Positions 354 through 23,599 of a stretch of 64,000 nucleotides of DNA are shown in pieces. Position 1 is the stretch's first letter. Every line of letters starts with the position of its first letter. The notes beneath the pieces were generated by a model. The model ran no database searches and had not been told where the DNA came from. It was given only the letters and a program-made list of their open reading frames with translations. Source of the stretch: Bacillota bacterium (GTDB lineage: Bacteria; Bacillota; Negativicutes; Sporomusales; Sporomusaceae); assembly GCA_023443285.1 (NCBI GenBank), contig JAEZVB010000128.1, positions 3,385 through 67,384 of the forward strand, in the 5' to 3' direction. The translations under genes and the position numbers were made by a program.

Positions 354-2864
354 ATGGCAAAAGGGACAAAAGTTGACGAGCTGTATTTGCAGTTATCCTT
401 GGATATGTCCGATTTGGAAAAAGGTGTGGCCGGTGCCGATAAAAAGGTTACTGACTTATCAAGAAAACTAAATACTGAGCTTAAATTTAATAAAATCAAA
501 GCTGATATTGAACTGGCCGGCATTGATAACGCTGAAAGAAGTATCAAAGGGCTTAAAGTGCAGTTTGAATCACTTACGCGTTCTGTTGAAATCCAGCAGA
601 AAAGAGTGGAAATCGCAGCCGCCCTACATTCCAAAGCCGTAAAAGAACTAGGTGAAAATGGTCAAGGTGTAAAGCTGTTAGAAAGCAGATACCTGCAAGA
701 GCAGAAAGCCCTCGCTTTACTGGAAAAGCAACTCAGACAGACCAATGAAGCCAGAAAAAACATAAATGTCAATGCAGGCAACAATGCTGGCACAGGAGTC
801 TTGGAACAATTAAAAACAGCAGCCTACGGCGCGCAGGCTAACCTCTCACTAGTTAATTCCAAGCTTCTGGTCTTGACGGCTCTGGCCGCAAGTGGCGGCG
901 GTTTGTTTAATTTAGTCAAAGGGGCAACCGAGGCTGGTGAATCGGTTTATCAATTGGCAACAAAGTTAAGTATTGGTGCGGCAGAAGCGGGAAGCCTCAA
1001 TAAAATTTTGCGCCTAACCGGCACAGACAGTCAGTCCTTTATAGCGACCATGCTTCGCATAGATAGAGCCGTAAGTACCGCAGGGAAAAACGGTAATGCC
1101 ACAACCCAAGCTCTCGAATATTTTGGTATATCCATCAAAGATACCTCCGGAAACCTGCTGCCGCTCAATCAGCAAATTGAGCAGTTAGCCAAAGGCTATA
1201 AGCTAGCAGCGGCTGCAGGCGAAGAAGAAGCCTTTGTTGCTGAAGTGTTGGGCGCGCGCGGAGCTGCTTTAATCCCTATGCTAAAAGAATATGAAGTAGC
1301 TGCCCAAGCTGCCAGCCGGATAAAAACCATCGGCATTGATCCAGCACAAGCGCATGAATTAGGCATTGAATTTAAAATCATTTCGGCAGAAGCCTCGCAA
1401 TTAAATAACGCTATGGGTAATGCCTTACTGCCAATTGCTAAAGAAATAGCGCCTGTCATAGCCGATGGATTTGGCGAGACTGTGCAATTCATAAAAGAGA
1501 ATAAAGACGCGATTGTCGATGTTACCGAGGTAGTTATTGAACTGGGTGGAACCGTCAAAGACGTATTGGTAACGGCTTTTGCACCTATGTTCGGCTTTGT
1601 TATTGACAATAAAGACAGTGTAATTGCTGCTTTGCAGCAAATCCGGGCAGAAATGCAGGTACTGCAAGAGAAGCCGTGGGCCATAGTATTGCCACCCATG
1701 TTGCAAGAAATCATTCTCGGCGATGAAGTTAAACAGAAAAAGATTCAGATGCAAGCGGCGGAAGCAGCAAAAAAGGCCGCTCGCGCCGCAGCAGAAGCCA
1801 CTGCCAAAGAAAATGAAAAAATACAAGCTGAGGAAGAAAAGCGCCTGCGTGAACAACTGCAAAACAGGCAAAGGGCTAATGCCGAAACCATAAAAGCGCA
1901 ACAAGAGCTTGACGCGGTATTGTATCGTTTAAATCATGATCGTGTACAAAATGAGCTCCATGACATCGACCTAAAGACCCAAGAAATGATTAAAGCTGGA
2001 GTGCAAGAACAGACTGCACTAGAACTAGCAGAAGCGAAAAAGGCGGAGATAACCAAGCGCTGTGCCGAAGAAATTCAAAAAGAGCGAGAAAGCTTAACTG
2101 ATAAAATCTTTGCGCAAAACGCATCAGCCTTGCAGATTCGCCTGCGGGAAATTGAACGCGAAAAACAAGCCTGGATTAAGAAAACCAATGATGAAGTTAG
2201 GGCCACGCAATGGGCCGAGCAAGAAAAAATACAGGCTGTAAAAAATGCTGCACTGGATGCCATTCGCAATCACCAGGAAGAACTCGAACTCATTAATAAA
2301 GTAATTGAGGCCAGAAAAAACCAAGCGGTCATTGAAGGAACAGACAAAAACGGCAACACGGTTGATTACTCTTCACAGTACCGGGCACGGGCAATTAAGT
2401 CTGCCATGGAAGAACTGCAGGCTTTTCAAAGAGAAGCGTTAAACCTGCCTAAATTATCCTTTGCAGTAACTCCGGAACACTTGGAACTATTGCAAAGTTC
2501 CATGCGCGCTGTAGAGGATTCGGTGTTACATGGTATGGTTACCGTAAATAACCAGGCCTTAAACGATATGACAGCCAATATGCCGCAAATCGGCCAAATA
2601 GCAGCTGATAATTATTTTTCGCCTTGGCAAAGTAAGGTTCAGCAATTATCAGGAGCGCTATCCAATATTGGTGGTGTTGGTATGGAAAGCACGCCAGGTG
2701 CGACCAACCCGGTCATAAAAAACTTTAGTATTTCCATTCCTGTTACAATCCAGGCAAACGTAAATTCCGATACGGACTTAAACCAACTGGCTGACAAGGT
2801 TGCTGCCAAGATCGAGAAACCGCTTGTGCAAGCCATACAGGGAGCGGATGAATATGGTGTTTAA
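354..2864 (+). CDS. phage tail tape measure protein
   Basis: 836-aa ORF with long A/E/K/Q-rich coiled-coil stretches and a hydrophobic central region. It follows the chaperone pair; size and position are typical of a tape measure protein. Confidence 0.9.
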   Translation: MAKGTKVDELYLQLSLDMSDLEKGVAGADKKVTDLSRKLNTELKFNKIKADIELAGIDNAERSIKGLKVQFESLTRSVEIQQKRVEIAAALHSKAVKELGENGQGVKLLESRYLQEQKALALLEKQLRQTNEARKNINVNAGNNAGTGVLEQLKTAAYGAQANLSLVNSKLLVLTALAASGGGLFNLVKGATEAGESVYQLATKLSIGAAEAGSLNKILRLTGTDSQSFIATMLRIDRAVSTAGKNGNATTQALEYFGISIKDTSGNLLPLNQQIEQLAKGYKLAAAAGEEEAFVAEVLGARGAALIPMLKEYEVAAQAASRIKTIGIDPAQAHELGIEFKIISAEASQLNNAMGNALLPIAKEIAPVIADGFGETVQFIKENKDAIVDVTEVVIELGGTVKDVLVTAFAPMFGFVIDNKDSVIAALQQIRAEMQVLQEKPWAIVLPPMLQEIILGDEVKQKKIQMQAAEAAKKAARAAAEATAKENEKIQAEEEKRLREQLQNRQRANAETIKAQQELDAVLYRLNHDRVQNELHDIDLKTQEMIKAGVQEQTALELAEAKKAEITKRCAEEIQKERESLTDKIFAQNASALQIRLREIEREKQAWIKKTNDEVRATQWAEQEKIQAVKNAALDAIRNHQEELELINKVIEARKNQAVIEGTDKNGNTVDYSSQYRARAIKSAMEELQAFQREALNLPKLSFAVTPEHLELLQSSMRAVEDSVLHGMVTVNNQALNDMTANMPQIGQIAADNYFSPWQSKVQQLSGALSNIGGVGMESTPGATNPVIKNFSISIPVTIQANVNSDTDLNQLADKVAAKIEKPLVQAIQGADEYGV

Positions 2865-3186
2865 AATTGGGACAGCAGTTGCCATGAAAACAGAATCCTT
2901 TGCAGTTGCCCCCGATGACCGACAAATCCTGATCAAAACCGTTGGCGGTGTAGTTGTGCAGGATAATGGCAGAATTCCGGATGGGGATGTAATCACAGTA
3001 ACGCTGAAATTCACGGCAGCGAATTGGGCGCTGGTTCAGGACTATTGGCATAAGAGAACCAAGGTAAAAGTAACTGATCATACGGGTGTGACATATTCAG
3101 ATTGCCGGATTCGTGTTACCGGCATCAAATACGTGGATAAGTTTCCTGGCAAATATGACATAACGTTAGAAATTTGGAGGGTATGA
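2848..3186 (+). CDS. hypothetical phage tail protein (about 112 aa)
   Basis: ATG at 2848/2854 overlaps the tape measure stop and is tightly packed in the late operon. No family recognised. Confidence 0.6.
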   Translation: MNMVFKIGTAVAMKTESFAVAPDDRQILIKTVGGVVVQDNGRIPDGDVITVTLKFTAANWALVQDYWHKRTKVKVTDHTGVTYSDCRIRVTGIKYVDKFPGKYDITLEIWRV

Positions 3187-3575: not shown

Positions 3576-4205
3576 ATGGGCGCAGAAAGTATTAGCATTG
3601 ATACCCTAAGAAATGTTTTCTGCTCGGAAAACGTAAGTGTTGATACCGGCAGACATGTCATTTGTTCCGAAACAGTATCAGTTGATACAGCCAGAAAAAG
3701 AACCAGTAGTTTATTTGGCTGTACAACACTCTCCATTATCCTTGCGGCAAAATCACTCACTGACAAATTTGCGCTTACTACTTACCAGCCAGTTATTCTT
3801 GAACAACTCCTAATCGGTCATGTCAGGAGTTTTAATTTTGCTTTGAAAGTAAAGGAATTATTGATAACGGACGGATTATATTCTGTTACCGGGGTCTATG
3901 ATATTGATCATCTGCTAAGTAAGCCGCTGGCATATGATGCAAGTCTGAAAAAAGCAACAAGTACTGTTTACGCTATAGCAGCTGTACTGGGTAGTGCAGT
4001 AAACATAAGCATTGATGATTTTGCTGTTGATAACCAGAGTGGTGGCCGCCCAACCTGTAAGGAGGTTTTAAATAACCTATTTTCCTGGACAGACAAATTA
4101 CCACACAGGCAGATTAATGTGTTTGTGCGTAACGGAACGCTAACTATCTTACAGCGCGGCAAGGAAACAGGCACAGTTACAATTAAGCAGGAGCATCCGT
4201 ATTAA
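3576..4205 (+). pseudogene. N-terminal fragment of a phage tail/baseplate protein, truncated by the 4188..9097 inversion
   Basis: The native reading frame ends at 4187. The last 6 codons and the stop are read from the inverted endolysin sequence. The frame continues in phase with the minus-strand ORF open to 9097 once the block is re-inverted. Confidence 0.65.
3594..3700 (+). repeat. about 2.5 degenerate tandem copies of a 42-nt (14-aa) unit, S(I/V)DTxRxVxCSExV
   Basis: Units 3594-3635 and 3636-3677 align without gaps with roughly two thirds identity. A third partial unit starts at 3678. Confidence 0.6.
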
Positions 4206-4641
4206 CCAAAACATAAAAGCGGGATTCTTTATCTGGGTCACCATCGGAATAATCGGTTCTACCTGCTCTGTCTGGAAACTCGGCGGCAATTTGCCCATAG
4301 ATGCAGGTAGCCAGCCTGTCCCCTTCCGTCTGCCCCGGCGAGGTCCATATCTCATAACCTTCCGCACTCTCGTTTGCCGCGCTGTTGCAATGAAGAGAAA
4401 TAAAAATATCGGCACCCCAGTCATTTGCCAGAGTAGTCCGATAGATTAAATCATCTGTTTCTGCTTGTTCCCATTCGGTCCGGGTCAGTTTCACCTCATA
4501 CCCTATCGCAAGTAAATATTTTTCAACTAGCCGCGAAATCACCAGCGCAACATCCGCTTCCTGAAGGCCTGTTGTTCCATTTACTGCGCCAGGATCAATA
4601 TTTCGTCCCGCATGCCCCGGATCAATGCATACTTTTGTCAT
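4183..4641 (-). pseudogene. N-acetylmuramoyl-L-alanine amidase (Amidase_3) endolysin, N-terminal fragment
   Basis: Motifs CIDPGHAG..DPGA, EADVAL, TR and ADIFISLHCNS are present. The sequence stops at FYVLVNTDAP(A*), inside the conserved P-x-V-L/I-x-E strand. Confidence 0.85.
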
Positions 4642-5230
4642 CGCGTTTTTCCGCCTCTTGTGCTAGCGTCACTGAAAAATTAGAACCCGTAATTTTGAAT
4701 AAAAGCATGCAACAATACAGCTTTAACTGCGCTACTTTTGTATTACCCATTTCCTCGAAGTTTTCTAAAATACTAAATAACTCGGTCATAGCGATGTAGG
4801 CATATATTCCTCCGGCAATCGCCTTATTAAGTTGTGTCCCAGCAATCAGCATCTCCGGCAGTTTTCCTGTCAAACCAGCGAATATAATGAGGATTCCATA
4901 GATGAAAATCTTTTCTCCCCAACACTGTTTTAACGCTCTGCTCGACAAATATCCAGGCTTCCAGGCATAAAAAAAGCCGCATAGAAGTGCGGTTGCGGTT
5001 ATGGGCAGCAGGCCTTGGTCAAGCAAGTAACGTTTTGTAATACCAACCCATTTTGTGAGAGTGTCCAGGCAGACAAAAACCATAACAACTAACAGAATAA
5101 TTTCACTTCCCCCAAACAAAAAACAAATCAAAGAGGACATCCCTGCCACTGCTGTCTTGTAAGGCCAGCTGTCAGCAATTGTATCCCTGCTTCGCTCAAT
5201 CAAACTCCACAATTTGAGCATAATCTCCAA
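4622..5230 (-). CDS. phage holin (toxin-secretion/phage-lysis holin type)
   Basis: Multi-TM 202-aa protein with an ELFSILENFEEMG motif (E-x-x-S-I-x-EN). It overlaps the start of the amidase gene, forming a lysis cassette. Confidence 0.7.
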   Translation of the reverse strand: MEIMLKLWSLIERSRDTIADSWPYKTAVAGMSSLICFLFGGSEIILLVVMVFVCLDTLTKWVGITKRYLLDQGLLPITATALLCGFFYAWKPGYLSSRALKQCWGEKIFIYGILIIFAGLTGKLPEMLIAGTQLNKAIAGGIYAYIAMTELFSILENFEEMGNTKVAQLKLYCCMLLFKITGSNFSVTLAQEAEKRDDKSMH

Positions 5231-5262
5231 GCCCTCACCACCTTATTTATTTACCATTTCTT

Positions 5263-6336
5263 TCACAATGGCTCAGCACAACCGCGAAATCCGATTTCCC
5301 GACTCAGCATCATTGGGCTCGAACTCCAACTTGAATTTCGTGAACCACAACGAGAATTATCCACCCAAATACCACCCAGAACAACACGATTCGAATTCTT
5401 CCATGCTGTACCGCGTACACCGGTATCATTGCTATCATAAGCAGTTTCATAGGTTTCTGACGAATGATACGGACCACCCGCCTCTGCTCCCCATTGATAC
5501 TGTGCACCGCACATATCTTCACAACCAATATTAGATATCATTCTCCTTCCTGCAAAATCGCTATGCCCGCCGGTTGTGTTAGGGTCTGACTCGCTAGCAA
5601 TATTAGTACCCTGATTGCTGCCCAAACTAGCAGACATAAATTCACGTTGAGTAAGTAGATTCTTTTTAGACTTTGCCAGCCAATCCGTGCCTTTATACCA
5701 GTGAAAAGCAGGAGTAGAAGTGCCGTCAGCAATGACACCGTTGTAAATACTGACTAGTTGCGACTCGCTCACACTAGCCAAATAAACATCAATCCACTTA
5801 TTGGTGTTTGCATCATAAACCATACCCTCCGGTTGGCACACCGGTCTATGGATTAAGTCCCAGATACTAGCCGGCAGAATATCACCGGCGCTGTAATCAC
5901 TCAGCGTATGCCCAGAAATTATGCCAACAGCCGCACATAAACAATGAAAGCCTCCGATCTTGCGGCAATTACTAGCTTCATAGCCTATAGGAACTGTGCT
6001 ATTTGCAGACAATAAAAATAAAGGTGTTATCCCGGTTGCCGGCTGACAGGTATAGATATAAAAATCTTTGCCTGCCCGGTTTTCCGCTGCCGTAAAACTA
6101 GCCGTATCCCAGTTAGCTGCCTGAGAAATATCGATTTCTTGCTGTGTGGAAACTATATAGCCAGAAGAATTAACCTTTACGGTTAGCTGCTTGGGTGACA
6201 AAAGTTTGGTTTGCCCGCTTGCTTGCCAGGCTACGTCGCGCGCATAGTCAGCAGGCAGAGAAGCGATTACTGCCGCAATATCAATGCCGCCTGAATCACC
6301 ACCAGAGGTTTTTCCGATGAATCCACCAAACCCCAT
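5263..6336 (-). CDS. phage tail fibre / receptor-binding protein with a C-terminal C-type-lectin (FGE/sulfatase-modifying-factor-like) domain
   Basis: C-terminus is NRVVLGGIWVDNSRCGSRNSSWSSSPMMLSREIGFRGC, which resembles the R-GGSW...G.R...IGFR signature of CLec-fold tips. It is the last structural gene before the holin. Confidence 0.55.
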   Translation of the reverse strand: MGFGGFIGKTSGGDSGGIDIAAVIASLPADYARDVAWQASGQTKLLSPKQLTVKVNSSGYIVSTQQEIDISQAANWDTASFTAAENRAGKDFYIYTCQPATGITPLFLLSANSTVPIGYEASNCRKIGGFHCLCAAVGIISGHTLSDYSAGDILPASIWDLIHRPVCQPEGMVYDANTNKWIDVYLASVSESQLVSIYNGVIADGTSTPAFHWYKGTDWLAKSKKNLLTQREFMSASLGSNQGTNIASESDPNTTGGHSDFAGRRMISNIGCEDMCGAQYQWGAEAGGPYHSSETYETAYDSNDTGVRGTAWKNSNRVVLGGIWVDNSRCGSRNSSWSSSPMMLSREIGFRGCAEPL

Positions 6337-6602
6337 TATCTAACCACCACCTGTACTTCAGACGCCTGTGCGCCAATTATGCTGAGCATATTCCAAGGAG
6401 ACTTCGGCCTGAGTTCATAGGATTGACTCTCGGTAAGCTTCAAACAATTAACATCATTTAATAGAGCTGACTGGCGCCAACTAATAAAAATGTCCCCAGG
6501 GCCGTAGTTAACCAAATCGGCATGTTGCTGGGGACTGTCGTAACTAATGATGGTTTCGCTGTTTGGCACTAATACACATCGGGTAATTTCTTTCCCTTGC
6601 AC
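6336..6602 (-). CDS. hypothetical phage protein (88 aa)
   Basis: Start/stop overlap with the downstream gene at 6336; packed in the tail module. Confidence 0.5.
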   Translation of the reverse strand: MQGKEITRCVLVPNSETIISYDSPQQHADLVNYGPGDIFISWRQSALLNDVNCLKLTESQSYELRPKSPWNMLSIIGAQASEVQVVVR

Positions 6603-6615
6603 AGTTCTGACCTCC

Positions 6616-8025
6616 TTATCCCTTCCAATTATTAATCATAGAAGCAATTTGTTTTGCAAAACCAGGCCTAACAAATGTAACGCGCTTGTTGTAATGGCTT
6701 TCATTTTGGGTAAGAGCATACACTTCCTGGTACTCACCAGCTATTACTCTCCCTATACCGCGGCTATGCAAAAACCACAGTTCACCTTTTTGTTTAATAA
6801 TATCAAGCGGAACGTTATACCCTATTTCGCATAATGTACTGCCATCCGGGTTATGAACTACTCGTCCCACATTCTTTACTTCATTATAGTAATAGCCGCC
6901 AGGCAAATAATACGGGAAGTCTTGCTGATTGCTCGTCGATGTTGTTTGTATATTCGTAAACCGGTAGTAATAATTGGCGGCAGTCGAGCCATTTAGTTCT
7001 TCAAACGAATCGGCGGAAAACCAAGGACAGTTATCCTCAATAACCCAAGGATTTAAGCCATAGCCATGGCCATCTAGAGTATCTGACACCTCTGTATTTT
7101 GATTCATTCTTTTGGAAAAGCCGCCATTATACTGAAACTCTTCTTCATAGCCTTGTATCGCTCCGCCAGCAAGAAAACCATATTTTTTGCCCGTATCTGC
7201 CCGGTATGCATTTAGATATACGCTCGTTCTAACCTCGCCATCAGTATATCCGCTAAAAAACAGCTTCCCCTCAGGACTTACAGACAAACTTGATAACAAT
7301 ACAAGACTATCTAAGCTTGCTATCGCTTTATAGCCAATACCTGACTGAGTAATATAATTACCTTCAACGAGTCTAAGACCAGCGGAATACTTTCTTAATT
7401 CTAAAACCGCAGCATCTCTTGATATATCCAATAATCCTCCATACTCCTGCTGCAAGGACTCGTTTTTAAAAACTTGTATGGCTCCATTTGCACTGCTGCC
7501 AGACTGATTTGCTACAGGCGATTCAGAATAACTGCTTGCTTTCCCAAAAGCACTGATAAGATTGCCCTCTGCACTAACGCAAAAATCTATACTTTGTGCT
7601 GTTATTGGCAGGTTCAGCCACTTTCCCTTTACTATATCTAAGAATTTCATCTTGCCCTGCAAAGTTCGCATCATTAAATAGGCTGCATTTGACCCATACA
7701 CAAAAAACATCAAAATCACTTGTCCAGCACTCTGCATAATCTGGGTTAATTTTGTTTTATCAATGAGATAGCGGGCAGTTTTTCCTGTAGCATACACTTC
7801 TGTAACATACACATCTCCACCATATGTTCCAAACAGAATCATGCATTCATCTGCCTTCGGAATATAGGGTTGCACGTTTCTGACTGGTTCATGGCCAAAT
7901 ATTACCTTCGAATCAGTCCACACCCAGTCACCTACTTGGTGAGAAGCATTGCCGATTGCCCGCTTTCCGCCAGAAGAAGTATATATAATAGTGCCGGATA
8001 TACCAGTTATTTGTTCAAGCTTCAT
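6616..8025 (-). CDS. hypothetical phage tail/baseplate protein (469 aa)
   Basis: Long ORF in the tail module with a 4-nt overlap to the upstream gene. No family recognised. Confidence 0.6.
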   Translation of the reverse strand: MKLEQITGISGTIIYTSSGGKRAIGNASHQVGDWVWTDSKVIFGHEPVRNVQPYIPKADECMILFGTYGGDVYVTEVYATGKTARYLIDKTKLTQIMQSAGQVILMFFVYGSNAAYLMMRTLQGKMKFLDIVKGKWLNLPITAQSIDFCVSAEGNLISAFGKASSYSESPVANQSGSSANGAIQVFKNESLQQEYGGLLDISRDAAVLELRKYSAGLRLVEGNYITQSGIGYKAIASLDSLVLLSSLSVSPEGKLFFSGYTDGEVRTSVYLNAYRADTGKKYGFLAGGAIQGYEEEFQYNGGFSKRMNQNTEVSDTLDGHGYGLNPWVIEDNCPWFSADSFEELNGSTAANYYYRFTNIQTTSTSNQQDFPYYLPGGYYYNEVKNVGRVVHNPDGSTLCEIGYNVPLDIIKQKGELWFLHSRGIGRVIAGEYQEVYALTQNESHYNKRVTFVRPGFAKQIASMINNWKG

Positions 8026-8261
8026 CGGCCAACAATCACCGCTTTCGTGCCGGCATCATTCATGACTACATATACCCAATCACCTGTATTCATTGCCATA
8101 TCGATGGCTGCAGAATATGGATAACACCTACCGCCTATATGCACACCATCGTTGGTTATCTGTCCGCGTTTAACGCTATTTTGTGCCGCCTCGCGTTTCA
8201 ACCTGTCTTTTACAGCGCTCGTAACCGTACGACATAACTGTTCAACACTCACGCATACCAC
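8022..8261 (-). CDS. hypothetical phage protein (79 aa)
   Basis: Overlapping starts and stops with both neighbours in the tail module. Confidence 0.5.
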   Translation of the reverse strand: MVCVSVEQLCRTVTSAVKDRLKREAAQNSVKRGQITNDGVHIGGRCYPYSAAIDMAMNTGDWVYVVMNDAGTKAVIVGR

Positions 8262-9097
8262 CTCACTAATTCAACACGCTGGCTGAATTTCTCCGGTTCC
8301 TGAGTAATATTGTTGCTCTCCAAGTAGTATTCGTTGCCTCGCCAGATCACTCGCGACGTATAATCTAAAATTGTATCATCATACACTTCCATGCTGATGC
8401 GTTCCTCTATTTTGCCATCAAGCCAAACCAGTGCGTCGGCAATAGCTTGTAAGCTGGCAATATCAGTAACAGGGTATTCATCCATGAGACTTCGTAGGCG
8501 GGCAGGTATGGTATATATCACTACATTGCTTCCCGGAGTAGTAATAACAGGCGCATTTATAGAGTTTTCACGAATCGAATAAGGACTAGCTTTACTGGAA
8601 GGTGATCCTTGCCCGATTGTCGTGCTGACAGTTACACCATTTTCTTCAATGGTTGTCCCCCAATGTCCCTGGCCTAATGGATAATGGCGGGTGAGCCTTG
8701 TTCTTACAACGCTCTCGCTTTCGTATTCTTTTTCGGTTTCTGTCACAAGATCATTACCGGAAGTATCATAGGTCACTTCAATCTTACCGGTTTGGGTCAA
8801 AGTCGTTTTTTTCTTAATAAATGCCGGTGGCACTGATGCTGAGTATTCCCATGTTGTGACTTCGGTAAATCCATCAATATTATGAGTTTCTTGTGTAACT
8901 AAACCATTCGAATACGTCACGGACGAATCTCCAAACGTGAATATCCCGGACAGATAGGATTCGGAATCTCCCTCGCTATCATCTATGCCACTGGAACTAA
9001 TGATAGTACCTGGCACAGCATCGCCGTTTGTGTCCGTGGAGTCCTCTAATGTATTAATCCGCGCTAGGTGAATACTTGGCTCGCTATAATCCTTGTC
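8249..9097 (-). pseudogene. C-terminal part of the split tail/baseplate protein (partner of 3576..4187)
   Basis: The ORF track starts it at GTG 9016, but the frame stays open upstream to 9097 (..DKDYSEPSIHLARINTLEDSTDTNGDA-VPGT..). There is no RBS before 9016. Confidence 0.6.
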
Positions 9098-9225
9098 TCA
9101 TAGAGATGGCGTTTATTTCAAATGATGAGGAGGCTGCATTACTAGCAGACCCAATTTGGCAAGACCGATATGCAAGGGCGATTGCGCGAGGAGTGACTGA
9201 TTATTTTTTAGCGGTGGAGGGATGA
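9098..9225 (+). pseudogene. C-terminal fragment of the Amidase_3 endolysin
   Basis: Frame-1 translation (V)IEMAFISNDEEAALLADPIWQDRYARAIARGVTDYFLAVEG* matches the Amidase_3 C-terminal consensus (LvE.aFISNp.Ee.lL ... A.aia.Gi..Yf). It has no start codon of its own. Confidence 0.85.
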
Positions 9226-9228
9226 GGT

Positions 9229-9858
9229 ATGCTCCAGGTGTTCCAAACGTGGATAACTGCCTTTAAGCAAAACAAGTGGCTGATGGTGCTTGCTGTTTCC
9301 TTCCTATTAATATGCGCAATGCTTTTCTGGTTTTGGCAGCGTACACAGCAAGCGGAAGAAAAGTATCGGCAGGCGGTGGTGCTGCAGCAGGAACAATTGG
9401 AACAGGCGCAGGAACTTGGCAAAGTCCTTCATATCTCACAGATGAACGCTAGGGAACTGCAGGCGGCTTATGATGCACTGAAAGCTAAGCCGCCTGTTGC
9501 CAGTTTTTCCGTAAACGCGCCATCGCTAGTGGTTGCGGCTGAGCAGGTGGCGGAGAGAATTAATAAACAGGATACTACTCTGCCGACTGCCGCACTGGAA
9601 AAAACAGACCGGACGGCGGTGGTCAAAAACGATAACGAATATAAAGTGGATGTGCTGAAAATTAATCTGGACAAAACTTGGGAACTTTCCGCAGGGATAG
9701 GAAGTCACCGCGGTGATACCTATATTCCGGTTGGGGTGCAGAGAAACTATGCTGCGAATAAGGCCGTGGCAGCGGAAGTGCATCTGGTGCTGGAAGATTT
9801 GGCGAAGGGAAAAATAAAGACCTCCGGCTGGGAGATCAAGCATGTGTGGCGGTTTTGA
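9229..9858 (+). CDS. membrane-anchored coiled-coil protein downstream of the endolysin (possible spanin-like lysis accessory)
   Basis: RBS GGTGGAGGG, with the ATG 3 nt after the amidase stop. It has an N-terminal TM segment (WLMVLAVSFLLICAMLFWFW) followed by a Q/E-rich helix. Function is inferred from position only. Confidence 0.55.
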   Translation: MLQVFQTWITAFKQNKWLMVLAVSFLLICAMLFWFWQRTQQAEEKYRQAVVLQQEQLEQAQELGKVLHISQMNARELQAAYDALKAKPPVASFSVNAPSLVVAAEQVAERINKQDTTLPTAALEKTDRTAVVKNDNEYKVDVLKINLDKTWELSAGIGSHRGDTYIPVGVQRNYAANKAVAAEVHLVLEDLAKGKIKTSGWEIKHVWRF

Positions 9859-10130: not shown

Positions 10131-11789
10131 ATGCTAACAGTTGAACAGTACATTTCCCAAATGAAGAAAAAGGAGAAACTTGACGAGTTTGACTTTAAGA
10201 ATCATGCGGAAAACATGGCCGCCGTGATGAAGTGTGTAGTGGAATACTTCAACACGTATCTAAACCCTGAGGAATATGATTACGAGGCGATAAAACTCGA
10301 GCAGTCGGCGGCAAAGGTCGAAAAAGAAATTGCTGATACGTTACCCCTTAGTAAAGACTTTATTATCGAGTACTATAAAAAGTATAAATCCCGAATTGAC
10401 AGAATGCTAAAATCGCATTTAAAAGGCTATGAATATATGGAACTGTTTTATAGTCGAGTTGACTTTGAAGATGTGGTAAACAGGTTTTGTGAAGACCGAA
10501 AAATGCAGGATACTGGGTTAGCCGAACACAAGGAAGAGCTTATCCTGTTAGCTCAAGAGCTAAAGGAACGTGCAACAGAGAAGCCGTCTCGCACCGGATA
10601 TAAGTATTTGGACGAAGCCTTGTTTTCTTGGATAAAGGATACATATGCGAATTTCAAGGTAAACCTGGTTGGCTTCGTCGGTGAAATTGCTTATGAGTAT
10701 TACGAAAAGTACGTAGAAGGCATCTACGATAGGAGCACCGAGCAGCATTACCATATTAATCGGTACAATCACCGATATAACAGCAATCCTTTCGGGATCG
10801 ATAGAATATATAAAGACAATTGCCATAGGCCGTTCATTGAAGGTTGCAAAGGTGAACTGGAAATGCTGATCATGTACGAATGGGTACACAGCTGGGTCGA
10901 AGATCCCGAGTATTGGCCGGAATATGTGAATCTTTGTGTCAACACTGGACGGGTTAACATCGTCCGCAATATGAACATTTTGCTTCCCGCAATCAATAAG
11001 GAGATTGGCTATCCGGAGGACATCAAGAGTTCGCTCGTGTATGTGGAAACGACTACCGGGGCTTTGAAGAGCGACCCTGACGGACCGTATATTTTACGTC
11101 TTACCTATGACAAGGAAAATGATCTTATCTGGAAAGACGACGGACAACTAGCCCACGTAATAGCCAACTTGCAGGAAACCTTTGCAGCGTACGGTCCACC
11201 ATGTGCTTTGGAACTGTACTCGCCTCTTCGATCCCCAACATATAACGAAAAAGAGTTTTTTGTTCGGTACAATCAGCTGGAGAAAAAACTAAAAAAATAC
11301 GCGAATATGGCTATTGCGCTAGTTAACGGACCGCAAAGACACAAAGCAAAACTGAGCTACTTGATGCAAACAACCGAGGATATAATCAAGATAAGGACGC
11401 TGGCCAAAGAAATGAAGTTTCGGCTTAAGATATCTCTAGACATCTCAAAGCTAATAACGAATAAAAACAATCACAGCCAATTTGAACAAGACTTCAATCA
11501 GCTAAGCGAGATGCGCCAATCGATCATTGGGGTGCACTTGGCCAACAGGTTCCCCAGTAGTAGTATCATTGATAGGATTTATAAGGACGACAAGGTGTAT
11601 CTGAATCAATACGAATACCCTAGATTATCGAATTATCTTGGGTCTATTTCGGCTCTTTTCAACGACAACCAGCGCCGCTATTTCGTACCAGAAGAAATTA
11701 AAAACCCAGAAGAACTCGAGGATTTGACAGACAACCTGCTAAGAGCCGGCTTTTCATTCATCGAATGGAAGGACGAACAACAACCATGA
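10131..11789 (+). CDS. hypothetical protein A (552 aa), no recognisable family
   Basis: Long ORF with RBS GAGAGGTGAAG. It carries an internal duplicated IDRIYKD heptapeptide (nt 10797-10817 and 11568-11588). No Walker A or nuclease motif is visible. Confidence 0.75.
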   Translation: MLTVEQYISQMKKKEKLDEFDFKNHAENMAAVMKCVVEYFNTYLNPEEYDYEAIKLEQSAAKVEKEIADTLPLSKDFIIEYYKKYKSRIDRMLKSHLKGYEYMELFYSRVDFEDVVNRFCEDRKMQDTGLAEHKEELILLAQELKERATEKPSRTGYKYLDEALFSWIKDTYANFKVNLVGFVGEIAYEYYEKYVEGIYDRSTEQHYHINRYNHRYNSNPFGIDRIYKDNCHRPFIEGCKGELEMLIMYEWVHSWVEDPEYWPEYVNLCVNTGRVNIVRNMNILLPAINKEIGYPEDIKSSLVYVETTTGALKSDPDGPYILRLTYDKENDLIWKDDGQLAHVIANLQETFAAYGPPCALELYSPLRSPTYNEKEFFVRYNQLEKKLKKYANMAIALVNGPQRHKAKLSYLMQTTEDIIKIRTLAKEMKFRLKISLDISKLITNKNNHSQFEQDFNQLSEMRQSIIGVHLANRFPSSSIIDRIYKDDKVYLNQYEYPRLSNYLGSISALFNDNQRRYFVPEEIKNPEELEDLTDNLLRAGFSFIEWKDEQQP

Positions 11790-13105
11790 ATACCGAAGAC
11801 GAAAGAACAAAGCTGTATAACGAAGTTTGGAGTGAGCCGGTGACTACCGTGGCAGAGCGTTACGGGATTTCCGACAACGGTCTGCGCAAACGCTGCATCA
11901 AGCTGCAGATTCCTCTGCCTCCGATCGGCTATTGGGCTAAATTGAAGGCCGGTGCCAAGGTGCCGAAGCCCAAATTGCCGGTACTGAAAGTTAAGGAGGA
12001 GACCATTGTTTTAAAGAATGTGAAAAACGAGCATGAAATGGAACTCATCGATTTTGGTGGGCAATCAACAGAAGAGTTGAAAAAGCTCGACGGACTCGAC
12101 GTGTTTACACCTCGTTCCCGAGAGGCATTCGCAAAGTGGTGCGGGAAGATCCATGTTTCCAAAAAAGGCGACTCATTTCATCCCCTGATCCTTGAATATC
12201 AAAAGGAGATTGAATACCGGAAGGTGCGTGACAAGGAACACCAGTTTCGTGATATGTTTCAGTTTAGGGATGTGACATACTTTCCTAAAGTAAAATACCG
12301 TGCTAATCAGGTGGTCTTGCCGATTAGTGTATCCGACAAGCAGAGCAATCGGGCCTGCCGGATCGTCGATACGCTGATAAAAGCTGTAGAAGAGCTAAAC
12401 GGTAAGGTTAAGCTCGGAAGTCCGCATTATAGCCAGCGAGAAGCGACAGACTGTGTTTTTATTACTTTATTTAAGGACTCTTTTTCCTTTCAGGTGAACG
12501 AAACGATGGCCAAACGGCGGGCTGTTATCGCCGCTATGCCGCCCGAAAACAGGACTCGCGAATTCAAGCCAATGTATGAGAAAGTGTTTACCGGCAAGCT
12601 GGAACTTGAACTCAAGCGAACTTCTGATTGCTGGGAAAAAGACAAGCTTGAGCAGGTCTTAACCCTTACTGATTCGGCTGAGAAATCTATAGAAGAGCAA
12701 TTGGGCGAGGCATTTCAATGGATGGTTAAAACTATCCAGGAGGCGAAAATCGCCTGGACCATACAGACCAGGGAAGAGGAAATAAGGGCGAGGGAACGAG
12801 AACGTCAGCGAACACTTGAGGAAGAAAAACAGAAAAAGTTGCAGGCGATCCTGGACATGGAGAAACGCCAGAAGCAGTTGGTCGAGAACATCGAGCAGCA
12901 GATGACCGGCTGGTTTAAAGCCCAGAAACTCCGACAATATGCCGATGAGATTGAGGCCTATGCAAAACAGGTTGTGGACCCCGATGAAAAAGAATCGCTG
13001 GACAGATATGTAAAATTGGTCAGAAGAAAGGCGGAAACAAGTGATCCGATTACCGAAATTGTCCAGGAGATTAAGGCAATAGGGGTAAAGACAGAGTTAT
13101 CTTAA
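11786..13105 (+). CDS. hypothetical protein B (439 aa): N-terminal HTH-like module plus long charged coiled coil
   Basis: ATGA start/stop overlap with gene A at 11786-11789. N-terminus is LYNEVWSEPVTTVAERYGISDNGLRKRCIKLQIPLPPIGYWAKLKAG. The C-terminal third is E/K/R/Q-rich (REEEIRARERERQRTLEEEKQKK..). Confidence 0.75.
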   Translation: MNTEDERTKLYNEVWSEPVTTVAERYGISDNGLRKRCIKLQIPLPPIGYWAKLKAGAKVPKPKLPVLKVKEETIVLKNVKNEHEMELIDFGGQSTEELKKLDGLDVFTPRSREAFAKWCGKIHVSKKGDSFHPLILEYQKEIEYRKVRDKEHQFRDMFQFRDVTYFPKVKYRANQVVLPISVSDKQSNRACRIVDTLIKAVEELNGKVKLGSPHYSQREATDCVFITLFKDSFSFQVNETMAKRRAVIAAMPPENRTREFKPMYEKVFTGKLELELKRTSDCWEKDKLEQVLTLTDSAEKSIEEQLGEAFQWMVKTIQEAKIAWTIQTREEEIRARERERQRTLEEEKQKKLQAILDMEKRQKQLVENIEQQMTGWFKAQKLRQYADEIEAYAKQVVDPDEKESLDRYVKLVRRKAETSDPITEIVQEIKAIGVKTELS

Positions 13106-13199
13106 GCAAGCAGAAATCCTCCGCCATGTATTTTTATAAATTAATTAAACGTATAATGCAAATTTATTCATGTATAAACTGTATAAATGAACCGAAAAA

Positions 13200-13240
13200 A
13201 GCCAGGAGGCCCGTAAGTCGCGCGGCTCCTGGCTTTTGTT
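13200..13240 (+). terminator. rho-independent terminator of the A-B operon
   Basis: 9-bp stem AGCCAGGAG / CTCCTGGCT followed by TTTTGTTG. Confidence 0.7.
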
Positions 13241-13426
13241 GTTTACACAATGGCTTTTATCGGACAGATATTGCTATTTTAGGATTAATATTAAATTTTT
13301 TCTATAATAATAGAGGAATTTGGAAGAGAAATGCGAATTAAATATTGTTTAAAATGGCAGTAAGAGTCAGATTTGAGCTAGTCTTACACGAGGAAACAAG
13401 AAAGATAACCTACTGTGAGGTGCATA

Positions 13427-14554
13427 ATGAACCCGTATTTCAGGCTAATATTACTGTATTTATTACCACCGATGGTTTTGTTATTAATAAACTTATATAT
13501 TTCTAATAGTCAATCAGAATGGCTTATTATTAAAGCTTTAAAGTATCATTTGTTTGAAACAAATGTTATAGTTGTCTTGACAATAGTATGGCTAGTTTTC
13601 GTTTGCTTTCAAGATTTTACAAAGTATTTACAAAATGAAGCGGAGAAAAAACAACAAGAACTGAAGGAGATTATAAAAGAAAAGAATGTCCTTCTAGCTT
13701 CGAAGGCCGGCGCATTAATCGAGAAATATAGCGATTTATACCAATATCAAGCTAAGGAAGCAATTGGGCAAGTACTAAAAAAGTTTACGTTAAATAATGA
13801 AATAATACATTCTGCTCAACTGTATAAATACTCAAAAAAACTTTTTGATGATTATGCAGTCGTTAAAGTTGACTATGTAAACGGCTATGTCTCGGAAGAT
13901 GTAGATATCAACGCGATGATCCAAAGTTACTATAAACTACCTACTGAAGTTTATAAAGAAGTTAATGAAATACTCGAGATTAAGAAGAAATTAGATACCC
14001 TTTTACTTGGTAATGCCAAAAGTGTAGACGGTTTGATGACGGAAGCTTTAATTGAAGCACAAATTCAACAAGAACTACAAAATAAGACGCTAGCGTTTAT
14101 TCGGAAATATAAGAGCTCTATTGATAATAAATCGTTAGACGGATTAACAGAGCTCGATGCAATTATGTTATCGCTGTTTGAGTTGGTTTCAGAAATTTTG
14201 CTCATCAATCCTCAGCAAAGCGTGGATATGTGGGAACTTGAAATTTTTGACCATAGTAGAACTGAGGTCTTAAGAGGGTTCAAACGGGTTGGGATTCTGG
14301 CTGGAATTCTCAAAATTAACGAATATATTTTTCGGAATGAAGGGAAGAGTAACAAGAGAGGTCGAATATATATTACAAGATGCTTTGAGATTAACAATCA
14401 GAAATACATCGTCCTTCTTTCAATATTACCAACGGTTGTTACTTATCCTAAGTGGCAAGCCCATATTACGGGCCTTACTGGGGAACTTATTAGTAGCTTG
14501 CTTGACGATTCCAACATAGTATATAATAAAGAAGAGGAGGATGTGGAACTATGA
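13427..14554 (+). CDS. hypothetical 2-TM membrane protein C (375 aa)
   Basis: RBS GTGAGG 6 nt before the ATG. It has two N-terminal hydrophobic helices (FRLILLYLLPPMVLLLINLYI; VIVVLTIVWLVFVCF), then a K/E-rich helix and a soluble domain of about 270 aa. Codon usage is markedly AT-rich compared with its neighbours. Confidence 0.7.
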   Translation: MNPYFRLILLYLLPPMVLLLINLYISNSQSEWLIIKALKYHLFETNVIVVLTIVWLVFVCFQDFTKYLQNEAEKKQQELKEIIKEKNVLLASKAGALIEKYSDLYQYQAKEAIGQVLKKFTLNNEIIHSAQLYKYSKKLFDDYAVVKVDYVNGYVSEDVDINAMIQSYYKLPTEVYKEVNEILEIKKKLDTLLLGNAKSVDGLMTEALIEAQIQQELQNKTLAFIRKYKSSIDNKSLDGLTELDAIMLSLFELVSEILLINPQQSVDMWELEIFDHSRTEVLRGFKRVGILAGILKINEYIFRNEGKSNKRGRIYITRCFEINNQKYIVLLSILPTVVTYPKWQAHITGLTGELISSLLDDSNIVYNKEEEDVEL

Positions 14555-21130: not shown

Positions 21131-21889
21131 ATGCGCTGTGGCATAGATTTGGGTAGTCGTAGTGTGAAACTGGTCATGCTGGATGACGCCAAACAACTTA
21201 ATACGGCAAACATCTACGAGACAGCTAAATTTTACCGGGATTACGGCCAACGTTCTGAGACCGGACTGGTAGTGAACTTTGCTGCGCTCGGATTTCCTGA
21301 GGCTGCCAAACTGACAGCCACCGGCTATGGGCGTAATACGATTGATATTGTTGGTGCTACTGTAATTCCTGAGCTAAAGGCTCACATGCTGGGCGCTATA
21401 GCGCAGACGGGACTGACTGACTTTACGCTGCTGGATTTAGGCGGTCAGGATAGCAAGGTAATCAAAGTTCGTAAAGGCAGAATGGTAGATTTCCAGACAA
21501 ATGACAAGTGCGCTGCAAGCACTGGCAGGTATCTGGAAAATATGGCTGGAGTGCTTGATATTAGTTTAGAGGAGCTGGCTGGCTATAGCGAGAGTCCGGT
21601 GGAACTTAGCGCCACCTGTGCAATCTTTGGTGAATCAGAGCTGATTGGGCGGATTGTCGAGGGATACAGTACGGCTGAACTAGCTGCCGGCGTTAACTAT
21701 ACCATTTATAAACGCATAAGACCTATGCTTGGTGCGCTAAAGAGTGACAAACTTGTTTTTACAGGTGGCGTTGCACTTGGTGGGGCTATCCAGAAATTTA
21801 TTACCCGGGAAATGGGGATAGAGGTTATTATACCTAAGCATCCCCAACTGAACGGTGCCATTGGTTGCGCGGTATATGAGGGGAAATAG
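21131..21889 (+). CDS. acyl-CoA dehydratase activase (BcrAD/BadFG/HgdC-type ATPase)
   Basis: Motifs CGIDLGSRSVK, ATGYGR, DLGGQDSKVI, NDKCAASTGRYLE, CAIFGESE and FTGGVA..P..PQLNGAIGCA are present. Confidence 0.85.
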   Translation: MRCGIDLGSRSVKLVMLDDAKQLNTANIYETAKFYRDYGQRSETGLVVNFAALGFPEAAKLTATGYGRNTIDIVGATVIPELKAHMLGAIAQTGLTDFTLLDLGGQDSKVIKVRKGRMVDFQTNDKCAASTGRYLENMAGVLDISLEELAGYSESPVELSATCAIFGESELIGRIVEGYSTAELAAGVNYTIYKRIRPMLGALKSDKLVFTGGVALGGAIQKFITREMGIEVIIPKHPQLNGAIGCAVYEGK

Positions 21890-21919
21890 CTGACCCAAGA
21901 TGATTTGGAGGCGAACAAT

Positions 21920-23599
21920 ATGCTGCTGGGAATTGATGTGGGTGGAACCTTTACTGATGCTGTAGTCATTAAGGAAGGTAAGGTTTTGGCAGCGGCCAAG
22001 ACACCGACGACACATGGAGAATTGTTGCGTGGCATTATAACGGTTATTGATAAGGTGCTTGGGAGTCTGAGTCGGGCTGCTATTAAGCGGGTAGATTTGT
22101 CGACAACCATTGTGACTAATGCACTAATCGAAGGTAAAATTGCCAAAGTCGCTTTGTTATTACTTCCTGGGCCAGGACTTAACCTGGAAGGGATGACGCC
22201 AGGCCAGCCGCACCTCTTAACTGGCTATACCGACCACCGTGGGCGGGAGAAGGCGGCGCCGATCAAGGAAGAGGTAATCGCTTCTTGCCGCAAGCTTGCA
22301 GGTACTGAAGTAGCGGCTGTTGTTGGCAAGTTTGCGGTACGCAATCCGGAGCAGGAACAGCAGGTAGCCGGCTGGGTACAGGAATATCTGCAGCCAGCCC
22401 ATATAACGGTAGGTGCTGAACTGTCAGGTTCACTAAATTACCTCAGACGGATTAATTCAGCCTACTATAATTCGGCTGTATGGCACATCTTTTCTGATTT
22501 TGCGGCAGCTATGGAAGCTGCAATTGCTGAACGCGGTATTATTGCGCCAGTATATATATTAAAAGCGGATGGCGGCACCTTGCCCCTAGCAGCAGCCAAA
22601 GCAAGGCCGGTAGAGGCTGTTTTTACCGGTCCGGCAGCTAGCGTGCTGGGGATAATGGCACTGACCAACCTGGACGAACCTGCAGTTTCCTTAGATATCG
22701 GCGGCACCAGCACCGATATAGCTCTGTGGCAAAACGGTGTGCCGCTAGTGGCTGCAGGCGGAGCCAGTGTTAACGGCTATCCCACGGCAGTGCGCTCGTT
22801 TTGGCTAAGCTCGGTTGGTATAGGTGGTGACAGCTATGTCCGGCGTCAAGATGGCTCCTTGCTTGTCGGGCCTATGCGCCGCGGGTCGGCCATGGCCTGT
22901 GGTGGTGTAGAACCTACGGTAACCGATGCGCTTAGGGTTGCCGGGTTGATTGATTATGGCGACGAGGTACTCGCAAGACGCGCTATGTCTATTGTGGCTG
23001 CTGATGATCAAACTCCTGAGGATGCAGCGTGGGAGACCTTGCGTGTGGCAAGTGATACTGTGTGCCAGGCAATCACTGCGATGTTGAAGGAGCAGGCTAC
23101 AAGACCAGTGTACAAAGTGGAAGATATTGTTCATGGTACAGCGTTTAGTCCTGAACTGGTTATTGGTGTTGGTGGTGCGGCGATGGGGCTGGTGCCAATG
23201 ATTGCAGAAGAGCTCAGTCTACCCTGGCAAGTGCCTACTGGTCACATGGTGGCTAATGCTATTGGGGCAGCCTCTGCCCGGTCAACAACCGAGATTACGC
23301 TCAGAGCAGATAGCGCAGAGGGGTATTATACTGTACCGGAACTAGGCATCAAGCGGGCTATAGACAAACGCCGGTTTAGTTTGGTTGAAGCTTGGGCGGC
23401 AGCCGAAACCCATCTGGCTGAGCGTGCGGTTACTGGCGGCATAACCGAAGCGGCGACTGTTAGTGAAAGAGTATATGAAGAAGAATTTAATGTCATTCGT
23501 GGCTTTAATACTATTGGCAAAATCATGACCTGCAAACTGCAGCTAAAACCAGGTGTGCTAACAGCAGTACAGGCGGGGAGGCTTGGCGATGAACAATAA
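21920..23599 (+). CDS. hydantoinase/oxoprolinase (HyuA-like) family protein
   Basis: N-terminus LLGIDVGGTFTDAVV plus the second ATPase-fold motif SLDIGGTSTDIAL. RBS TTGGAGG before ATG 21920. Confidence 0.8.
   Translation: MLLGIDVGGTFTDAVVIKEGKVLAAAKTPTTHGELLRGIITVIDKVLGSLSRAAIKRVDLSTTIVTNALIEGKIAKVALLLLPGPGLNLEGMTPGQPHLLTGYTDHRGREKAAPIKEEVIASCRKLAGTEVAAVVGKFAVRNPEQEQQVAGWVQEYLQPAHITVGAELSGSLNYLRRINSAYYNSAVWHIFSDFAAAMEAAIAERGIIAPVYILKADGGTLPLAAAKARPVEAVFTGPAASVLGIMALTNLDEPAVSLDIGGTSTDIALWQNGVPLVAAGGASVNGYPTAVRSFWLSSVGIGGDSYVRRQDGSLLVGPMRRGSAMACGGVEPTVTDALRVAGLIDYGDEVLARRAMSIVAADDQTPEDAAWETLRVASDTVCQAITAMLKEQATRPVYKVEDIVHGTAFSPELVIGVGGAAMGLVPMIAEELSLPWQVPTGHMVANAIGAASARSTTEITLRADSAEGYYTVPELGIKRAIDKRRFSLVEAWAAAETHLAERAVTGGITEAATVSERVYEEEFNVIRGFNTIGKIMTCKLQLKPGVLTAVQAGRLGDEQ

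Follow-up and report, generated by a model that had tools for sequence, protein, structure and literature searches.

A 64-kb stretch of DNA from a Sporomusaceae bacterium (the whole stretch is referred to below as the window) includes, near its start, the late region of a prophage. Two of the late genes, one encoding an Amidase_3 endolysin and the other a putative tail-tip hub protein, are each found in two pieces on opposite strands. Most probably, this arrangement results from a one-off, non-programmed inversion of 4,904 bp (positions 4188..9091) in what is now the remnant of a Sporomusaceae prophage. An earlier reading made from the sequence alone (the sequence-only reading) had proposed that a single inversion splits both genes, and the open reading frames (ORFs), the junctions and the profile matches described below all agree with that proposal. 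The head, tail and lysis genes adjoin the host codY gene and reside on a bacterial chromosome; the host CodY is 78% identical to CodY of Sporomusa aerivorans and S. rhizae. This is prophage inactivation and decay of an ordinary, if tidy, kind, not a genetic switch, and it provides a nucleotide-resolved example of a prophage disabled by a balanced inversion with near-zero homology at the crossover. Because all domains are still present, such lesions are invisible to prophage "completeness" scoring based on gene content.

The split genes and the ancestral gene order

As the window stands, the catalytic domain of the endolysin is distributed over opposite strands, 4.9 kb apart, making the gene a disrupted member of the Amidase_3 family (PF01520). 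The N-terminal part is carried by a minus-strand ORF of 152 amino acids (aa) at 4183..4641, whose product ends in ...FYVLVNTDAPA and is terminated by a foreign stop codon, TAA, at 4183-4185. The C-terminal part is read on the plus strand in a frame that begins at approx. 9094, CLIEMAFISNDEEAALLADP...GVTDYFLAVEG followed by a stop; just to the right of approx. 9094, the frame reads ...CLIEMAFISNDEEAALLADPIWQDRYARAIARGVTDYFLAVEG and a stop. On the Amidase_3 profile, the two pieces abut (positions 1-138, then 139-173) with zero overlap and zero gap. Re-inverting 4188..9091 yields a 195-aa amidase that reads ...NTDAPACLIEMAFISN... across the junction and matches positions 1-173 of the 174 in a single stretch, with a score of 149.7 bits.

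The repaired endolysin closely resembles those of other Sporomusaceae prophages. All 120 of its full-length close homologues (P0139-P0258), which share 84-91% aa identity with it over the whole repaired protein, carry DAPACL[V/L]EMAF across the junction, and it aligns without gaps through ...TDAPACLIEMAFISN... to the solved amidases 8c2o, 3ne8 and 8c0j. At the DNA level, the re-inverted gene is ungapped across the junction when compared with the loci L096 (84.4% nucleotide (nt) identity) and L100 from Sporomusa carbonis (78.6%); in particular, the minus-strand copy tracks the DNA of both relatives up to ...GCTCCTGCTT, and the plus-strand copy resumes at CTTGTCTC.... The prophages L096 and L100 also resemble the reconstructed element in having a holin, amidase and p209 cassette, with an equal gap of 3 nt between the amidase gene and p209. 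The endolysin genes of these prophages are in one piece, whereas in the window the gene breaks off after codon 152 and the two halves lie on opposite strands. The LIEMAF sequence of the C-terminal piece aligns to LVETSF of AmiA (8c2o) and to LIEIGY of 3ne8, and this motif is present in the C-terminal piece only. The glutamate of this LxE motif is one that we take to be catalytic, from the literature on PlyPSA, CD27L and CwlV. With an N-terminal endolysin fragment that is devoid of the conserved motif, the element can reasonably be regarded as lysis-defective.

The tail gene is interrupted in a similar manner. The ORF that begins at 3576 reads ...GTVTIK, with AAG at 4185-4187 as its last native codon, and continues through five foreign codons (QEHPY) to a stop at 4205, and a minus-strand frame stays open from the junction (9091) down into the ORF that begins at 8249. 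The two pieces match consecutive parts of phrog_24491 (221-378 and 445-668). The repaired gene encodes 484 aa, and its 14 full-length homologues span 89-99% of the repaired protein and are uninterrupted at the break; none of its relatives is more than 46% identical to the window protein. Neither Pfam nor a sequence search of the PDB with the hub alignment gave any match. An AlphaFold model was therefore examined for P0004, a homologue that shares 45% identity with the repaired protein (mean predicted local distance difference test score, pLDDT, 81.5), and the fold search was run on that model. It matches baseplate hub/Tal structures with E values from approx. 1e-7 down to 9e-5, a probability of 1.00 and target-normalised TM-scores of 0.5-0.58, including the phiCD508 needle, the MuSo2 43-kDa protein 3cdd, NF5 Tal, the Mu and P1 baseplates, Listeria gp18 (3gs9) and VgrG/gp27. 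Since the fold of the homologue matches these structures and approx. 80 loci keep the gene in its place after the tape measure gene, the tail gene is predicted to encode a tail-tip hub of the gp27/Tal type. Tail-tip hubs are normally essential structural proteins, and the inversion would have broken this one.

It is not by chance that the pieces of the split genes fit together, because the Amidase_3 matches abut, the phrog_24491 parts are consecutive and the GC skew changes sign over the block, being negative within approx. 4.0-9.0 kb and positive on either side. Neither the two split genes nor the five genes inside the block contain any stop codon or frameshift, which suggests that the inversion is recent. 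With a broken hub and an endolysin N-fragment without the LxE motif, the element would be able neither to build tails nor to lyse the cell. For annotation, the 152-aa "amidase", a 209-aa protein and the 223/255-aa "hypothetical" protein are to be flagged as fragments of two genes.

Re-inversion places the whole late region on one strand in the order tape measure, two small tail proteins, hub, p79, p469, p88, Mtd-like fibre, holin, amidase and p209 (Table 1). Related loci were found by an alignment-based search, and gene order was compared in 80 IMG/VR loci together with L001 and L002, i.e., 82 loci in total; searches for loci with single proteins in IMG/VR and in GTDB genomes returned no relatives. 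In the 80 IMG/VR loci, L001 and L002, the genes for the tape measure, p128a, p128b, hub-N, hub-C and p79 are contiguous on one strand, and five of these loci also carry contiguous amidase-N and amidase-C parts followed by p209. The tape measure gene is syntenic with its counterparts in more than 70 related loci, the 2854..3186 protein is kept between the tape measure and the hub in relatives, and p79 comes immediately after the hub in almost every related locus. Moreover, in the loci with the closest amidases (L096-L101, which include a complete Sporomusa carbonis genome), the holin, amidase and p209 genes follow one another on one strand, and p209 is 83-86% identical to the gene right after the amidase gene in L096 and L100. 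The split or flipped arrangement was found in none of the 82 related loci. The comparison thus bears out the proposal of the sequence-only reading that re-inversion makes the late region collinear, and what had been named as a possible refutation, namely that related intact phages share the split arrangement, was checked and holds for no related phage. These loci indicate that the collinear order is ancestral.

Table 1. Coordinates of the inverted segment, its crossover points and the late genes in the window.
Feature	Position	Strand	Basis
Tape measure protein, 836 aa, intact, upstream of the inversion	354..2864	+	phrog_18863 (E 3e-120), PHROGs 8462 and 4704
Small tail protein, 110 aa in public assemblies (mechanical ORF start 2800)	2854..3186	+	phrog_17796, E 1.6e-31
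Small tail protein, 128 aa	3188..3574	+	phrog_23562; syntenic in relatives
Hub, N-terminal part, codons 1-204	3576..4187	+	phrog_24491 positions 221-378 of 668
Left crossover, AAG	4185..4187		One arm of the 3-bp inverted microhomology; equal best score in the HMM test
Endolysin, N-terminal part, codons 1-152	4186..4641	-	Pfam Amidase_3 positions 1-138 of 174, E 2.7e-29
Inverted segment, 4,904 bp (equivalently 4185..9094)	4188..9091		Reconstruction, GC-skew flip, junctions in ENA and Logan
Holin, 202 aa, intact, within the inverted block	4622..5230	-	Pfam Phage_holin_4_1, E 5.8e-9; phrog_199
Mtd-like tail fibre / receptor-binding protein, 357 aa, intact	5263..6336	-	Pfam mtd_2nd (PF21916), E 4e-20; phrog_11262 "tail protein", E 9e-59
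p88, small conserved late protein, 88 aa, intact	6336..6602	-	88-aa L001 counterpart in the equivalent place, 43% identity
p469, late/tail protein, 469 aa, intact	6616..8025	-	Same-position homologues in L001 (48%), L002 and L079
p79, small protein after the hub, 76-79 aa, intact	8022..8261	-	phrog_18588
Hub, C-terminal part, codons 205-484 and stop	8249..9091	-	phrog_24491 positions 445-668 of 668; phrog_35371
Right crossover, CTT	9092..9094		Other arm of the 3-bp inverted microhomology
Endolysin, C-terminal part, codons 153-195 and stop	9094..9225	+	Pfam Amidase_3 positions 139-173 of 174; LIEMAF motif
p209, gene after the endolysin, intact, outside the inversion	9229..9858	+	phrog_10797, E 2.5e-67

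The breakpoints and the type of exchange

To place the breakpoints, every frame-restoring pair around both junctions was enumerated, and the products were scored against hidden Markov models (HMMs) built solely from homologues. The top-scoring pair, 4188..9091, yields one identical reconstruction with the pairs 4185/9094, 4186/9093 and 4187/9092; the four are equivalent because AAG at 4185-4187 is the reverse complement of CTT at 9092-9094. The sequence-only reading had put the inversion at exactly 4188..9097, and inverting that segment does yield in-frame products of 486 and 193 aa. Its right breakpoint is nevertheless 6 nt off: the border lies at 9091/9092 rather than at 9097/9098, and the repaired products are of 484 and 195 aa. 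The total HMM score is 777 bits for the 4188..9091 class versus 762 bits for 4188..9097; moreover, the shorter amidase scores 136.8 bits on Pfam Amidase_3 as compared with 149.7 bits for the 195-aa form, and its DAP--VIEMAF sequence requires a gap of 2 aa relative to the homologues. On the amidase side, zero bases are lost, so that the exchange is reciprocal and conservative, with a 3-bp overlap. The reconstructed collinear junctions read ...ACAATTAAGGATTATAGCGAG... and ...GATGCTCCTGCTTGTCTCATAGAG..., also given as ...GGCACAGTTACAATTAAGGATTATAGCGAGCCAAG... and ...AATACGGATGCTCCTGCTTGTCTCATAGAGATGGCG....

Two other candidates for the junction homology were rejected. The imperfect inverted pair GACAAGGA/GACAGGAG, which had been seen at the sites as first reconstructed, gives way to AAG/CTT, which covers every base. 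A 6-bp GACAAG model fails as GACAAG is missing at the left junction and an extra deletion would be needed.

Before the event, the late operon would have lain on one strand from the tape measure gene through p209, with the 484-aa hub and the 195-aa endolysin whole. A single reciprocal, conservative exchange would then have joined the hub gene between codons 204 and 205 to the endolysin gene between codons 152 and 153 via AAG/CTT, and the stretch between the two crossover points would have been flipped. The exchange itself appears to have been illegitimate, i.e., independent of homology, and might have been of the topoisomerase/gyrase type or a clean rejoining of two breaks; an accident of a recombinase at pseudo-sites would also fit. 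A one-off illegitimate exchange is favoured because there are no inverted repeats, no recombinase in the window and no shared site, and because two genes were destroyed. In particular, no inverted repeat of at least 10 nt pairs the two junctions, and inspection of the two ancestral sites reveals neither a shared recombination site nor dyad symmetry, AAG/CTT being all that they have in common. Scans for promoters and terminators gave matches no more numerous than in shuffled controls.

Spontaneous, non-programmed inversions have been verified in a chemostat study of Salmonella, in which the junctions displayed 12-18 bp of homology (PMC3411829). The inversion in the window is alike in being non-programmed and in having short inverted homology at its endpoints, although its 3 bp, as compared with 12-18 bp, argue for illegitimate exchange rather than for recombination at short homologies.

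The sequence-only reading had noted that no invertase gene is nearby, which holds within the window: a Pfam scan of the tested ORFs found no recombinase in window positions 1-21,115, and tblastn of the whole 64 kb with a large serine recombinase, a tyrosine integrase and Hin gave no match. It does not hold farther out, as a 531-aa large serine recombinase (Resolvase, Recombinase and Zn_ribbon domains), the nearest recombinase outside the window, is encoded with its start approx. 5.3 kb upstream of window position 1, that is, approx. 9.5 kb from the left junction. The family of this protein is very widespread, with 69-94% identical proteins across many lineages; the exact protein was not returned. 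Its annotated relatives occur in Oscillospiraceae, Clostridium, Dehalococcoides and Lentisphaerae.

It is quite unlikely that the inversion was catalysed once, at pseudo-sites, by this prophage enzyme or by another recombinase acting in trans. The proximity of the 531-aa enzyme and its 38-51% identity to integrases from the prophages in which the closest amidase cassette is found speak for such an event, and a conservative exchange with a 3-bp overlap can be reconciled with the 2-bp crossover made by serine recombinases. The ancestral sites, however, share just AAG/CTT without visible dyad symmetry, a 3-bp overlap occurs by chance in approx. 5% of random breakpoint pairs, and large serine integrases act with high site specificity and directionality.

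That the block is a programmed, reversible segment of the Gin/Cin/Hin or shufflon kind, which toggles the late and lysis region, is extremely improbable. The block does contain a tail-fibre gene, as the invertible segments of Mu and P1 do, and re-inversion restores both frames exactly; like the G segment of Mu (Gin), the C segment of P1 (Cin) and the P segment of e14 (Pin), it measures a few kb, belongs to the tail-fibre region of a prophage and is found inverted. In Mu, P1 and e14, the segments are bounded by inverted crossover sites of approx. 26-34 bp, an invertase of approx. 190 aa is encoded next to them, and both orientations give complete fibres. The window segment has none of these features: inverted-repeat crossover sites are absent, no invertase gene lies within or beside the block, and one orientation destroys two genes without swapping alternative C-termini. 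Moreover, the observed orientation, which truncates both genes, is the sole one in the assemblies seen, the flipped state occurs in 0 of the 82 related loci, and the repaired hub and amidase proteins are absent from a collection of approx. 15 billion proteins.

Also extremely improbable, and supported by nothing, is a reversible lock, in which an enzyme acting in trans (e.g., the serine recombinase 9.5 kb away) would flip 4188..9091 at minimal sites. If true, it would switch the endolysin and the hub on and off jointly and would amount to host control over a domesticated phage-tail and lysis module. A new biological question would arise only if read data showed the segment flipping back.

Assembly support for the inverted junctions

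Identical inverted junctions are present in two sequences from the ENA, scaffold_34 of ERZ28599204 (201,687 bp) and NODE_212 of ERZ24910853 (64,310 bp, coverage 5.8). Moreover, Logan 31-mer contigs of SRR13400994 read through both junctions, the left one by 458 nt (L007) and the right one by 41 nt (L004). The public copies equal the window except at position 2386, where the window has C and scaffold_34, NODE_212 and the Logan contig L007 have A; the difference falls on a second codon position of the tape measure gene and is nonsynonymous. An exact look-up of the window tape measure protein found none on record in the collection, because of this C/A difference.

In principle, the true genome might be collinear and the inversion a product of misassembly or chimeric reads. 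Such an artefact is very unlikely. The junctions match in two differently named ENA assemblies and in the 31-mer Logan contigs, which argues against misassembly; no repeat of at least 10 nt flanks the junctions to mislead a de Bruijn graph, and no nucleotide is left unaccounted for by the two reciprocal junctions, both of which are present, so that neither a graph error nor a chimeric read is likely, a balanced pair of junctions not being expected of random chimeras. What can be said for an artefact is that the coverage of NODE_212 is low (5.8), that all copies probably have one origin (see below) and that, in the Salmonella study, single-read junctions with less than approx. 7-9 bp of microhomology were inseparable from chimeric reads (PMC3411829).

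Several observations weigh against a real, one-off, non-programmed inversion, or against parts of its reconstruction. The public copies probably all come from one low-coverage sample (SAMN17279157 / SRR13400994), so that the inversion is seemingly without an independent biological replicate, and a minority subpopulation may be collinear; a literature search found no paper on these sample identifiers. No near-identical collinear copy of the prophage was present in the collections searched; among GenBank phages, there was also no match to a 12-kb query (megablast) or to the repaired hub (tblastn). The perfectly conservative exchange would be equally expected of a site-specific recombinase. When breakpoint pairs are picked from the window at random, 5.5% overlap by at least 3 bp (P = 0.055), which is marginal, and the 3-bp microhomology is thus at most suggestive. 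Finally, the relatives used to reconstruct the hub have no more than 46% identity to it, and phrog_24491 favours the 486-aa hub by approx. 5 bits (178.5 versus 173.3), whereas the homologue HMM favours 484 aa by 4 bits. As the two are opposite in sign, the hub evidence is neutral on the breakpoint, and the position in the hub gene follows from the amidase side, where every base is accounted for.

The prophage remnant and its neighbouring genes

The element is crippled independently of the inversion. The head module upstream of the window is intact except for the portal gene, whose ORF is reduced to 133 aa and matches only the last 49 positions (273-321 of 321) of Pfam Phage_portal, i.e., its C-terminal end. 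This fragment lies 85 bp from the start of the divergent gene for the 531-aa large serine recombinase (L006 1-1597), and neither a terminase gene nor any early gene lies within these 85 bp. The larger part of the portal gene, together with everything normally located upstream of it, is gone from its place. The truncated portal is a second lesion, independent of the inversion, and either a deletion or an insertion could have caused it. With late genes on the chromosome and lesions in the hub, endolysin and portal genes, the element is a defective (cryptic) prophage. Since it is a remnant irrespective of the inversion, its being "locked in", which the sequence-only reading had put down to the inversion, is not attributable to it.

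Decayed cryptic prophages, e.g., those of E. coli K-12, likewise consist of phage structural and lysis genes that persist on the chromosome with inactivating lesions while accessory neighbours stay intact. Described prophage decay mostly involves deletions, insertions of insertion sequences and point mutations. In the present element, by contrast, the lesion is a clean and balanced inversion whose breakpoints are placed at nucleotide resolution, and both halves of each gene are free of secondary mutations.

Between the lysis module and codY, three plus-strand ORFs (552, 446 and 379 aa, the first two overlapping) occupy window positions 10131-14554, a region of lower GC content (0.407). Described earlier as intact cargo genes, they are indeed intact as ORFs; their products have no recognisable function, with no match in Pfam, PHROGs or PADLOC. 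Located where morons usually occur, the region possibly represents a novel accessory or defence cassette.

The amidase and p209 cassette (window 9094-9858) is 83-91% identical at the protein level to those of L096 and L100, whose tail module is unrelated (TMP_3 and a 1,459-aa BNR-like protein). The contrast between this cassette and the hub, with its relatives of at most 46% identity, clearly points to modular mosaicism. Sporomusa carbonis carries an inserted zf_CopZ/Fer2_BFD gene that separates its holin gene from its amidase gene.

The C-terminus of the fibre encoded at 5263-6336 (...GGIWVDNSRCGSRNSSW...IGFRG...) resembles the variable region of a diversity-generating retroelement (DGR). Neither the window nor the 6.4 kb upstream contains a further copy of the 3' end of this gene that could represent a DGR template, and none of the neighbouring ORFs gave an RVT_1 match that would indicate a DGR reverse transcriptase. 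The Mtd-like fibre may thus be an orphan target of the DGR type.

The closest relative of the tail module, the JGI contig L001, encodes a Ku-domain protein (21642-21929) just past its lysis and accessory region; this protein is noteworthy because end-joining is a candidate route to inversions such as the one in the window.

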